IMG/VR virus record: IMGVR_UViG_2654587569_000016
DNA: 23,925 nucleotides
Strand: one strand, 5' to 3'
Origin: a virus
Lineage: Duplodnaviria > Heunggongvirae > Uroviricota > Caudoviricetes
The notes under the pieces were generated by a model. That model saw nothing but the letters and a program-made list of their open reading frames with translations. It was not told the DNA's origin and did not search any database. Positions 17,524 to 18,289 of this stretch are shown here, piece by piece. Numbering within the stretch: position 1 is the stretch's first letter; the number at the start of each line of letters is the position of its first letter. A program made the position numbers and the translations under genes.

Positions 17524-18075
17524 ATGACTCAAAACTATGAACTGATTGTGAAAGGGATCCGCAATTTTGAGAATAAAGTTACGGTAACTTTAGCGTTACG
17601 GGACAAAAAACGCGTTGACGGTGAAATTTTTGACCTGGACATCTCGCTGGACCGTGTTGAAGGTGCCGCGCTGGAGTTTTATGAGGCAGCAGCCAGAAGG
17701 AGCATCAGACAGGTCTTCCTGGATGTTGCCGCCGGGTTATGTGAAGGGGGTGAGCAGTCGCCGGAAAAGCGCCCCATAATTTTAGAGGCGCAGAATGTGT
17801 GGATAACCTACAAAGGAAAGCTACCGGGAAGAATTACTGGTTCTCTGAAGACGCCACCGACGGCATTGCGGTCAGAAAAAGATGATATTGAATCGCCCAT
17901 TGAAAAACTGGAGGGCAGAGTCGCTGATCTGAATAAAAAATTGTCGGTGCTGATCCCTTCTGAAGATGAAAAAAAACGCCGCGATGAGCAGTTTGCGGCG
18001 TTTTACGATTATTGCATTGAGGTTACTCGCAGGAATTTTGTGAAGATTTTTGAGGAGGGTAAATCTCTTCAGTAA
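17524..18075 (+). CDS. Hypothetical protein (183 aa) inserted between holin and endolysin
   Basis: Starts 4 nt after the holin stop with GGAGAG RBS; charged, partly helical; no recognisable domain. Confidence 0.55.
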   Translation: MTQNYELIVKGIRNFENKVTVTLALRDKKRVDGEIFDLDISLDRVEGAALEFYEAAARRSIRQVFLDVAAGLCEGGEQSPEKRPIILEAQNVWITYKGKLPGRITGSLKTPPTALRSEKDDIESPIEKLEGRVADLNKKLSVLIPSEDEKKRRDEQFAAFYDYCIEVTRRNFVKIFEEGKSLQ

Positions 18076-18289
18076 GCTTAATGGCGGACGCTGCAATTAA
18101 TTCTGGAAGGTCCGCAAGGTCATCTGTCAGTGGGAATGATGAAAAATCGGCGGCAGTTCTGTTAAGACGCGCTTTAACTAATTCCTTTTCTTTCTCCGGC
18201 AACAAGTTGATTAGAGCTACGACTGCTTGCCTGAGTGCGATTAAATCAGCAAAAGTTTGTTTTGGTAGATTTGTGTAATCCATAGTCAC
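18023..18289 (-). CDS. Hypothetical protein (88 aa), convergent with and overlapping the previous gene
   Basis: Minus-strand ORF with weak RBS; 3' end overlaps the plus-strand gene by about 50 bp; acidic helical sequence. Confidence 0.35.
   Translation of the reverse strand: MTMDYTNLPKQTFADLIALRQAVVALINLLPEKEKELVKARLNRTAADFSSFPLTDDLADLPELIAASAIKLTEEIYPPQKSSQNSCE

Follow-up and report, generated by a model that had tools for sequence, protein, structure and literature searches.

A moron, as conceived by Juhala and Hendrix, is an additional gene that brings its own promoter and terminator and is located between genes of a late operon; the bor gene of lambda, beside Rz, is an example. Convergent antisense pairs are found in lambda, where oop and cII overlap by about 55 nt at their 3' ends, and in prophages of B. 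subtilis, where the type I toxin-antitoxin (TA) pairs txpA/RatA and bsrG/SR4 consist of convergent units overlapping at their 3' ends. The moron concept is cited in PMC4104026.

The closest described relative of the locus reported here is ydfR of the Qin prophage of E. coli K-12, in the gene order essQ-ydfR-rrrQ. According to the excerpts of PMC13232886, residues 1-72 of K-12 YdfR (P76160) bind the N-terminal half of RNase E and the protein co-purifies with RNA; its overproduction has limited effects on the transcriptome, and these excerpts note no growth arrest for YdfR. This association with RNase E and RNA is the sole experimental lead on a family whose genes most E. coli genomes carry in their lysis cassettes, K-12, B, CFT073 and the Stx phages included. 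Our literature searches returned a single paper for DUF1327, the N-terminal domain of these proteins, with an incidental mention, while matches to ydfR mostly concerned an unrelated melanoma cell line, YDFR.

The window (the whole stretch of 23,925 nt that was analysed, from an E. coli prophage) carries the same gene order, which is also that of the related prophage locus L090. In the window, a gene on the opposite strand, here called m86, lies between ydfR and the lysozyme gene and overlaps the 3' end of the former. The features of the locus are the following:

17304-17519, plus strand: class II (phage-21-type) holin, 71 aa (PF04971, E 2e-32)
17524-18075, plus strand: YdfR-family late gene, 183 aa, ATG start (PF07041 and phrog_2091)
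17524-17859, plus strand: DUF1327 N-terminal module, codons 1-112, common to all YdfR length variants
17872-18075, plus strand: C-terminal "partner" segment of YdfR, about aa 117-183 (translations, alignments)
17969-18004, minus strand: hairpin followed by U8, predicted intrinsic terminator of m86 (10-bp stem, centroid -14.6 kcal/mol)
about 18016-18389, minus strand: presence/absence cassette of about 370 bp, comprising promoter block, 5' untranslated region, m86 and its 3' end (homology breaks)
18023-18075, both strands: convergent overlap of ydfR and m86, 53 nt (ORF coordinates)
18023-18283, minus strand: m86, 86 aa from the ATG at 18283 (phrog_2572)
18300-18319, minus strand: strong Shine-Dalgarno (SD) sequence GGAGGAGG (18319-18312) and 3-codon leader ORF, ATG TCA ATC TGA (18311-18300)
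18318-18342, minus strand: stem-loop of 10 bp, predicted 5' end of the m86 transcript (folding)
18352-18393, minus strand: candidate sigma-70 promoter of m86, TTTATC (18380-18375), 17-nt spacer, TATGTT (18357-18352)
18396-18929, plus strand: SAR-type lysozyme (R) (PF00959, E 6.4e-25)

The holin gene, which forms the left flank of the slot, carries the dual-start motif MYQM, and its relatives are named "class II holin family protein" by PGAP. On the right flank, the lysozyme has a SAR-like N-terminus and Rz follows downstream. As in K-12 Qin, where the gap to the holin gene is likewise 4 nt, ydfR lies within the late lysis operon, after a class II holin gene, its ATG lying 4 nt past the holin stop at 17519 in the ORF listing of the window, and before a lysozyme gene, and the N-terminal domains of the two YdfR proteins are homologous. 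However, K-12 YdfR has 103 aa, only about the first 69 codons are common with the window protein, and its gene overlaps the start of rrrQ. The K-12 gene has neither the helical C-terminal tail nor the hairpin nor the minus-strand gene.

The first-pass annotation had pointed to a convergent overlapping gene pair between the holin and SAR lysozyme genes, and the ORF listing and Pfam searches bear this out. It had also considered both proteins unrecognisable, which is incorrect. The 183-aa protein matches PF07041 (YdfR/DUF1327) with 140.3 bits against a gathering cut-off of 25, aa 1-112 aligning with profile positions 1-92 of 93, and phrog_2091 over its full length (183/183, E 1.7e-109); relatives are labelled "YdfR family protein" by PGAP. 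The minus-strand product belongs to PHROG 2572 (phrog_2572, E 6.2e-52), with aa 3-88 of an 88-aa form aligning with profile positions 1-86 of 86. This longer form starts at an in-frame GTG at 18289, and the 86-aa form that starts at the ATG is the one that fits the 86-position profile. A distant member, P0140, matches the same profile with an E value of 3.5e-27.

In YdfR of the window, a linker joins the DUF1327 domain to a helical hairpin at the C-terminus. An AF2 model of low confidence (pLDDT 55.6) places a b-b-b-a arrangement across residues 5-73 and helices at 123-143 and 147-181. Length variants of the family span 103 to 296 aa, all with the DUF1327 module, and a mosaic breakpoint lies in ydfR at query nt 336/337. 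DNA coding for the N-terminal domain was detected in 3891 of the 5426 complete E. coli genomes searched, at up to 6 places per genome. ydfR is thus an ordinary late-operon gene, which most lambdoid prophages of E. coli have between holin and endolysin, and the earlier view that the pair as a whole is an insert between holin and endolysin has to be given up. The comparison of lysis cassettes did reveal an insert, present in some prophages and absent from others, but it is confined to about 18016-18389 and does not comprise ydfR.

The homology to L090, which is devoid of cargo, ends at 18014 and restarts at 18390, while that to K-12 Qin restarts at 18386. The cassette was detected in 314 of the 5426 genomes, including CFT073 and E. 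coli B, where Qin of REL606 and BL21 carries WP_001557934.1, and it is absent from K-12 Qin, L090 and prophage Sp15 of O157 Sakai; in the last, S and R adjoin, with neither ydfR nor cassette. A scan of GTDB species representatives yielded one locus only, in E. coli. P0085 sits at a contig end. The GC content of the cassette is 43%, versus 49-53% in the flanks, and its dS values are 0.05-0.09, while the holin and lysozyme genes on either side have 0.5-1.2; judged by sequence divergence, the cassette is much younger than its flanks.

As far as sequence can tell, the cassette has the marks of a moron: like the lambdoid morons, it is present or absent among related phages and differs in base composition from its surroundings, and a terminator of its own is predicted. 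It also resembles bor of lambda in its reverse orientation beside lysis genes, and one group of m86 homologues (group B, below) occupies a bor-like position after Rz; m86, however, is no lipoprotein and is unrelated to bor. Two features distinguish it from the lambdoid morons. The late gene next to m86 contains the predicted terminator and the final 17-19 codons of m86 within its own coding sequence, and a fragment of this neighbour, the YdfR tail, is co-mobilized with m86 and kept as an ORF.

Numerous spurious antisense ORFs of 60-110 aa are present near the locus in the ORF listing, so that ORF length by itself is no evidence for m86. The case for the gene comes from its homologues, which are 37-55% identical, include an in-frame indel of 7 aa and show between-group dN/dS ratios of 0.23-0.37 at dS values above 1. 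By these comparisons, m86 is a real gene under purifying selection at the protein level. Within group A, dN/dS is based on 4-13 substitutions, too few to be informative, and the variable sites display neither an excess at third positions nor any codon-position bias. The 86-aa ORF is intact in 42 of 49 unique group A sequences and, from the in-frame GTG, in 4 more; it is disrupted in L084, L047 and L001, the last being the closest relative. A 65-aa plus-strand ORF (18081-18278), antisense within m86, lacks its ATG in 13 of the 49 unique sequences and is therefore not considered a gene.

The m86 protein is acidic (pI 4.7) and has a GRAVY of -0.16 (-0.49 for YdfR). In the AF2 model (pLDDT 72.5) it consists of three helices (residues 8-25, 30-48 and 56-74) and a disordered tail. 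Helix 1 is borderline hydrophobic (KD19 of 1.6-1.7, with 1.62 for aa 11-29), an invariant Arg18 and a nearly invariant Gln19 lying in the middle of the segment. Hydropathy values revealed no clear transmembrane or SAR segment, and AF2 puts helix 1 in the core of a three-helix bundle; a membrane role may nonetheless be envisaged from the borderline character of this helix. In fold searches, the best PDB match was AcrIIC4 (E 3.4, TM 0.35) and BFVD gave none below an E value of 1, so that neither yields a similarity of use; profile searches of PDB sequences, NCBIfam and Pfam returned nothing. DUF1823, a label carried by PhiR phage records, was rejected for m86 (13.8 bits versus 25). One protein of 975 aa with TPR and CHAT domains and 7 repeats (P0139) resembles m86 in a pairwise comparison (E 2e-7), suggesting a TPR-like character. 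Since it is the sole such match among 1.84 billion representatives, this resemblance is a structural hint at most.

The minus-strand unit seems to carry its own signals. The candidate promoter lies within a conserved block, ATATTTATCAGGATTTATC (18393-18375), directly before the start codon of the endolysin gene on the other strand. With 3/6 and 4/6 matches to the consensus hexamers, thus 7/12, it falls below the threshold of a consensus scan; both promoter-like hexamers are kept in groups A, B and C, with a variable spacer. The upstream block also occurs at loci that lack a neighbouring endolysin gene, and S-R junctions devoid of cargo do not have it. The 77-nt leader of m86 folds with -26 kcal/mol (z = -4.0; none of 200 shuffled sequences was equally stable), and its stem-loop would form the 5' end of the mRNA, presumably as a protective structure. 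The 3-codon leader ORF, also present in L006, stops 16 nt before the ATG of m86. The SD sequence of m86 itself is weak, and translation is probably achieved by re-initiation behind the leader ORF.

At the other end, the hairpin of the predicted terminator begins 18 nt past the m86 stop and lies within ydfR codons 149-161 (EKKRRDEQFAAFY). All three groups have it, 8 of its base pairs being invariant and 2 others altered in both arms of the stem, and across groups no element of the partner gene is better conserved than its nucleotides. Groups B and C have a poor U-tail behind it, and there the hairpin may therefore have another purpose. The 5' arm of the hairpin (12 nt, coding for KRRD) is missing from the 296-aa YdfR of loci without cargo. 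A minus-strand match to the sRNA GcvB (RF00022) was rejected, as it reaches 19.9 bits against a gathering threshold of 42 and owes its score to the terminator hairpin. Nor does this unit correspond to the anti-sRNAs described by Tree et al. (2014), which are located downstream of PR' and not between S and R.

The m86 family is distributed in three groups and three genomic slots, always antisense to late genes. Group A has a convergent overlap of 53 nt, groups B and C one of 59 nt, and the relative phase is the same at every homologous locus examined. In the window, the overlap codes for the end of helix 3 and the disordered tail of m86 (aa 70-86), facing the 17 codons with which the YdfR helix ends. 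The group B module is positioned after Rz and not before the endolysin gene. In the Salmonella-type phages, the homologue of the YdfR tail is a standalone 73-aa gene after Rz, paired with the m86 family and equipped with its own SD sequence; its pN/pS is 0.37-0.48 (p 0.014-0.042), versus 0.9-1.5 in control frames. The same convergent overlap thus recurs in three diverged lineages, as expected of a conserved pair and not of a chance antisense ORF. The comparison across groups shows that a PHROG 2572 cargo and a YdfR-tail peptide have remained interlocked while the module moved to other slots and diverged to 37% identity, a level at which both the length and the phase of the overlap are still kept.

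The first-pass annotation had proposed mutual antisense regulation and, as roles for the pair, a lysis-timing regulator, a TA-like module or a late-expressed defence gene. A role in lysis timing may be envisaged. The antisense relation is supported, in that the geometry makes interplay unavoidable: the m86 terminator is inside ydfR, and late transcripts on their way to the endolysin gene cross the whole minus-strand unit. The defence gene and the TA-like module do not fare so well. Being antisense to the late operon, m86 cannot be expressed from it, which argues against late expression of a defence gene. As regards TA systems, txpA/RatA and bsrG/SR4 are likewise prophage-borne convergent units with a 3' overlap, but they associate a hydrophobic peptide toxin with an RNA antitoxin, whereas the present genes encode hydrophilic proteins of 86 and 73-183 aa. 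With the GRAVY values given above, neither m86 nor YdfR is a small hydrophobic membrane toxin of type I, and the excerpts cited note no growth arrest on overproduction of K-12 YdfR. A type II operon does not fit either, the genes being convergent instead of co-directional and TA domains being absent in Pfam, NCBIfam and PADLOC. In PADLOC-DB v2, m86 had only a match of no significance to PDC-M63B (15 bits, E 0.0028), and YdfR and the alternative cargos of the slot had none.

The reading that we favour, with somewhat better than even confidence, is that of a co-mobilized pair, in which m86, a small helical protein that would be produced during lysogeny, is associated with a partner produced from the late operon, the tail of YdfR. 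The N-terminal domain of YdfR would probably bind RNA and/or RNase E, by analogy with the K-12 homologue, and the 3' part of its gene is interlocked with a reverse-oriented moron coding for the small, acidic, presumably cytoplasmic three-helix protein. m86 would be transcribed leftwards from its candidate promoter, and its mRNA would end at the hairpin. With the terminator and the last 17 m86 codons inside the ydfR tail, the cassette and a tail of about 70 aa would have to move together. Expression of the two is most likely mutually exclusive, m86 being made in the lysogen and the YdfR tail after induction. At that stage, Q-modified, terminator-resistant late transcription would proceed antisense through the whole m86 unit and might silence it, via collision or duplex formation, while the YdfR tail is made. 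As for the proteins, our best guess is that m86 acts as a binder, whose partner or antagonist would be the helical hairpin of the YdfR tail or of the 73-aa protein.

An unlikely alternative, in our estimation, is that the locus serves as a slot for exchangeable accessory or defence genes, in which cargos are swapped by homologous recombination between two fixed arms, the promoter block and the hairpin. m86 would then be made in the lysogen, with superinfecting phages or the host as its target, and its link with the YdfR tail would be purely structural, because the terminator is there. Indeed, the same slot houses two unrelated minus-strand cargos, of 210 and 104 aa (L007 and L008), with the same promoter-like block and 5' hairpin, so that three unrelated cargos share these upstream elements; two of the three, m86 and the 210-aa cargo, also share the downstream hairpin. 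The upstream block can be recognized by ATATTTATCAGGNTTTATC and the hairpin by AACGCC..GGCGTT. The YdfR tail is found with the L007 cargo and, free of the hairpin, inside the 296-aa form, and is thus not exclusively tied to m86. The youth of the cassette relative to its flanks is what recent horizontal spread would produce, and its lower GC content and patchy presence point in the same direction. On the other hand, no meaningful PADLOC match was obtained. Moreover, a terminator needs only about 60 nt, whereas outside the S-R interval an intact partner of 73 codons is maintained, with an SD sequence and constraint on its protein, and the overlap has conserved its length and phase. The slot offers an exchangeable position for reverse-oriented cargo with a shared promoter block, mostly bounded by a terminator hairpin within the ydfR frame.

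Still less likely is an antisense RNA comparable to oop, for which the m86 transcript, or its 3' hairpin, would pair with the ydfR-R late mRNA and tune the endolysin, the downstream genes and lysis timing, possibly with processing by RNase III or RNase E, the protein being secondary. The pair resembles oop/cII in several points: both are convergent lambdoid transcripts, the ORF overlap of 53-59 nt is of similar size, and duplex-dependent control is plausible. At least about 108 nt of complementarity is guaranteed (17969-18075), the 3' overlap places the terminator within the partner gene, where the hairpin nucleotides stand out by their conservation, and the module is always within a late transcript, in antisense orientation. 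The link of the YdfR N-terminal domain with RNase E and RNA, as given in the excerpts of PMC13232886, would also fit. However, oop is a short non-coding RNA of the early region, whereas ydfR and m86 are both protein-coding and belong to the late region. The selection acting on the m86 protein, together with the in-frame indel, indicates that the unit is not merely an RNA. Against an antisense RNA also stand the unrelated protein cargos that share its promoter block and slot, and the lack of any match to an Rfam family, GcvB included. Finally, since the group B module lies after Rz, control of R cannot be its general role.

The co-mobilized pair might be extended into a mobile two-gene switch between lysogeny and lysis, which we hold to be quite improbable. 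m86, made only in the lysogen, and the YdfR tail or 73-aa protein, made only from the late operon, would be antagonists both at the RNA level, through an obligatory duplex of more than 100 nt, possibly handled via the RNase E- and RNA-binding N-terminal domain of YdfR, and at the protein level, through binding of the helical hairpin to the TPR-like three-helix m86. The outcome would be either a gating of late mRNA fate or of lysis, or the arming of a prophage exclusion function, which would be disarmed for the phage's own lytic cycle. If such a switch, or an RNase E-linked regulator, did exist, it would represent a new accessory layer on the best-studied phage lysis cassette.

The idea of a decaying hitchhiker, with a minus-strand ORF open only through the youth of the cassette and a 183-aa YdfR that would be a truncated pseudogene of the 296-aa form, can draw on the PGAP label of ydfR copies ("incomplete, missing C-terminus"), on the unbiased substitutions within group A and on the broken copies of m86, but it is very improbable in view of the between-group dN/dS, of the ORF kept in most group A sequences, of an architecture retained in three lineages and of the fact that the 183-aa form matches a PHROG family of its own over its full length. 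Even if the pair turned out to be another hypothetical moron, there are at least grounds to correct its annotation as "YdfR pseudogene plus hypothetical protein". A natural comparison is offered by one and the same prophage, Qin, which harbours the cassette in E. coli B and is free of it in K-12.

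As judged from sequence comparisons, the minus-strand gene between holin and lysozyme (m86, 86 aa) and the C-terminal tail of the plus-strand YdfR protein (residues ~117-183) form a conserved unit, which is the main new result. The two overlapping ORFs that the first-pass annotation had placed between the holin gene (S) and the endolysin gene (R) are present exactly as it described, converging with 53 nt in common. The window is a lambdoid prophage, running from integrase (1-1314) through repressor, replication genes and Q (12155-12520) to terminase, and its S-R slot is made up as follows:

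17524-18075, plus strand: YdfR-family ORF, 183 aa, starting 4 nt past the holin stop
18023-18289, minus strand: m86 ORF, 88 aa from GTG, 86 aa from an ATG at 18283
Slot flanks: phage-21-type class II holin (PF04971), lysozyme (PF00959) with a SAR-like N-terminus, Rz (PF03245)

Neither protein had been thought recognisable, and this was mistaken for both: the minus-strand product belongs to PHROG 2572, and the plus-strand product is a DUF1327/YdfR member (140 bits against a cut-off of 25, residues 1-112) that also matches phrog_2091 from end to end (183/183). YdfR is the standard gene of the S-R slot, already known and ubiquitous. The order in the Qin prophage of E. coli K-12 is essQ-ydfR-rrrQ, and 3891 of 5426 complete E. 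coli genomes contain N-domain DNA (17524-17859), at as many as 6 places each. Family members come in modular lengths (103 aa in K-12, 114-116 most commonly, 176/183, 211, 243, 268 and 296 aa), and the slot can also be empty, S and R then being separated by 4 nt, e.g. in Sakai Sp15. The sole functional data on YdfR date from 2026 (PMC13232886): residues 1-72 of the K-12 protein bind the N-terminal half of RNase E (two-hybrid and co-purification), RNA co-purifies with the protein, and its overproduction alters few transcripts. Residues 74-112 (17740-17860), CEGDEQSPEKRPIILEAQNVWITYKGKLPGRITGSLKTPP, are nearly invariant among family members and disordered in the AF2 model (pLDDT 29-41), which suggests either a binding motif or a fold missed by the model. 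Long variants (296 aa at locus L090, 268 aa at L008) carry an extra conserved C-terminal domain of ~130 aa (EWECNRPSFVV...GLTYLKVRI) without a Pfam match, and another inserted module, phrog_11851, occurs in the YdfR of one m86 lineage (group C).

The earlier claim of an inserted gene pair thus fails for ydfR, the usual gene of the slot, and holds for a segment carrying m86. In pairwise comparisons, homology to locus L090, a holin-YdfR(296 aa)-lysozyme arrangement that carries no cargo, ends at 18014 and restarts at 18390, and homology to K-12 Qin restarts at 18386; these breaks delimit a presence/absence unit at ~18016-18389, hereafter the cassette. The proposed comparison of related lysis cassettes bears this out, the insert being polymorphic: absent from K-12 Qin and L090, present in E. 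coli B and CFT073. The latter two are among 314 carriers in 5426 genomes, chromosomal in every case. In E. coli B the cassette lies in Qin between ydfR and rrrQ and, since its presence is exactly what sets this prophage apart from that of K-12, the pair is directly testable. Its GC content is 0.43 versus 0.49-0.53 in the surroundings. By sequence divergence, the cassette is much more recent than the DNA around it: variable sites number 3-6 per 50 nt versus 22-37 in the ydfR N-domain and, for the same genome pairs, dS is 0.05-0.09 versus 0.5-1.2 in the holin and lysozyme on either side. PGAP labels these loci 'YdfR family protein, incomplete, missing C-terminus' plus 'hypothetical protein'. Presence/absence polymorphism, a terminator (in silico) and base composition are those of a moron, and the interlocked, co-mobilised YdfR-tail/m86 pair is a new variant of one.

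A word-index search with m86 returned near-identical E. coli copies only, which together with the window's own copy make up group A; their 4-13 substitutions, and variable sites that divide 6:6:9 over the codon positions, are uninformative on coding. Exhaustive HMMER and profile searches recovered diverged members (P0140/P0144/P0146 and P0141/P0143) at 37-55% identity. The family alignment has 20 invariant positions, hydrophobic residues spaced as in helices and a 7-aa indel that keeps the frame, and between-group dN/dS is 0.23-0.37 at a dS of ~1-1.7, which together show that m86 is a protein-coding gene. The 86-aa ORF is kept in 42 of 49 unique group A sequences; in 4 the ATG has become ACG and the frame is still open from the in-frame GTG, and in 3, the window's closest relative among them, it is disrupted. 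AF2 (pLDDT 72.5) predicts helices at residues 8-25, 30-48 and 56-74 and a disordered tail (75-86); the protein is acidic (pI 4.7) and helix 1 borderline hydrophobic. There is no significant match in Pfam, NCBIfam, PDB sequences, PDB folds or BFVD, and the family is narrow, with members in prophages of Escherichia and Salmonella and on a few metagenomic contigs. In the representative library, a single 975-aa TPR/CHAT protein (P0139) has ~8 tandem 45-aa TPR-like repeats, each 31-41% identical to m86 (pairwise E 2e-7), and m86 itself contains an internal repeat, ADLIALRQAVVALINLLPE / ADLPELIAASAIKLTEE. A 65-aa Ser/Ala-rich ORF exactly antisense inside m86 (18081-18278, plus strand) is open in most copies; it is probably no gene, because 13 of the 49 unique sequences lack its ATG.

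All diverged members have the same convergent overlapping arrangement, m86 is antisense to late genes in every case, and the overlap phase is identical in all groups (53 and 59 both being 2 mod 3). In group C (37-40% identity to the window's m86), which occupies the S-R slot of phage-21-holin cassettes, m86 overlaps a 174- or 243-aa YdfR by 59 nt; at locus L101, likewise of this group, the overlap partner is a 144-aa protein encoded downstream of DUF3927. The group B genes (45-55% identity) come from Salmonella-type prophages whose holins and endolysins are unrelated; they lie past the DUF2514 spanin and ahead of DUF1441/terminase. There the 59-nt overlap is with a standalone 73-aa gene, located after Rz in the late operon and having its own AGGGGG Shine-Dalgarno sequence, whose product is homologous to the window's YdfR tail (KLxGLE, KRRDE, AA.Y and terminal V.RNF.K...Q in common). 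Its pN/pS is 0.37-0.48 in its own frame (p 0.014-0.042) versus 0.9-1.5 in the two control frames, showing that this partner is maintained as a protein and not merely as a hairpin carrier. Within the overlap, one strand encodes a YdfR helix that AF2 models as structured and the other the end of m86 helix 3 and the disordered tail; an origin of the overlap by extension of m86 into its neighbour would fit.

The signals of the minus-strand unit are the following:

18380-18375 and 18357-18352, minus strand: candidate promoter block ATATTTATCAGGATTTATC, TTTATC and TATGTT with a 17-nt spacer, nearest the endolysin start codon
18342-18318, minus strand: 10-bp stem-loop at the predicted transcript 5' end
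18319-18300, minus strand: strong Shine-Dalgarno sequence GGAGGAGG, then a 3-codon ORF, ATG TCA ATC TGA (18311-18300)
18004-17969, minus strand: 10-bp hairpin plus U8, starting 18 nt past the m86 stop

Both hexamers are kept in all three groups, with a variable spacer; the block also occurs without an adjacent endolysin gene (group B, L101) and is absent at cargo-less S-R junctions. It remains a candidate promoter because it matches the consensus weakly and falls below the call of a promoter scan. The leader folds at -26 kcal/mol (z = -4.0). The 3-codon ORF, conserved at locus L006, stops 16 nt upstream of the m86 ATG, whose own Shine-Dalgarno sequence is weak, and may serve as a re-initiation leader. 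The hairpin-U8 lies within ydfR codons 149-161, EKKRRDEQFAAFY, its arms encoding KRR and AAF, and the 296-aa cargo-less YdfR lacks exactly the 12 nt (KRRD) of the 5' arm. A hairpin past the m86 stop is found in all groups, with 8 pairs invariant and 2 in which both bases differ (G-C to A-U; C-G versus G-C); the covariation is statistically modest, 25 of 500 shuffles equalling it, and only group A has a good U-tail.

Other minus-strand genes occupy the same slot:

L007 1918-2550, minus strand: 210-aa gene of Stx1a phages, no family hit, downstream hairpin retained
L008 2194-2508, minus strand: 104-aa gene of Stx2-86, phrog_1853

These unrelated cargos have the promoter-like block and 5' stem-loop in common with the window and diverge directly past the stem-loop, a layout that is that of a moron slot with fixed arms. 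At L007, the annotated 263-aa 'YdfR' runs ~250 nt antisense through the 210-aa gene.

The anatomy is well supported: YdfR is interlocked with a reverse moron, which is mobilised together with the YdfR tail. As to mechanism, we lean slightly towards the following. In the lysogen, m86 would be expressed from its own promoter, its transcript terminating at the ydfR-internal hairpin; once the prophage is induced, Q-modified late transcription would pass the hairpin and cross the entire m86 unit to R, turning m86 off and producing the YdfR tail, the likely partner of m86. An exchangeable accessory or defence slot whose association with the YdfR tail is purely structural would account for the common arms and multiple cargos; selection on the 73-aa partner makes it unlikely as a full explanation, and the slot picture is compatible with the switch-off mechanism, the readings overlapping in part. 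A mainly RNA-level regulator resembling oop/cII is quite improbable given protein-level selection on m86 and the placement of group B after Rz. That m86 is a decaying remnant we consider very improbable.

The geometry is like that of lambda oop-cII and of the 3'-overlapping type I toxin-antitoxin pairs of Bacillus prophages, whereas here both products are hydrophilic proteins; the locus is neither a type I nor a type II system, contrary to the suggested toxin-antitoxin-like module. A PADLOC defence system was likewise rejected (m86 scores 15 bits at best), as was GcvB as the identity of the locus. The first-pass interpretation is partly supported: the pair is genuine and conserved, and its geometry makes antisense interplay unavoidable. 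A literature search of incomplete coverage found no paper on the minus-strand family or the interlocked arrangement.

Upstream, Q (12155-12520) is separated from the holin by ~4.7 kb filled by accessory genes (12155-17300):

12688-13875, minus strand: DUF4236 protein, 395 aa
14563-15621: N6/N4 DNA methylase
16198-16494: TerB-like fragment
16491-16658: DUF3927

Like Stx-type phages, the window has a three-tRNA cluster (Met-CAT, Arg-TCG, Arg-TCT; 15662-15905, plus strand) ahead of its late region. The moron region that follows Q contains, in the interval from DUF3927 to the holin, a segment strongly matching STnc100, an sRNA family of Rfam (16666-16846, plus strand; 117 bits, gathering threshold 47). 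Convergent with it is a weak Esr41-like match (17074-17164, minus strand; 28 bits against 102, E 0.022), an arrangement reminiscent of the convergent pairs of sRNAs that EHEC prophages are described to have downstream of PR' (PMC4104026).
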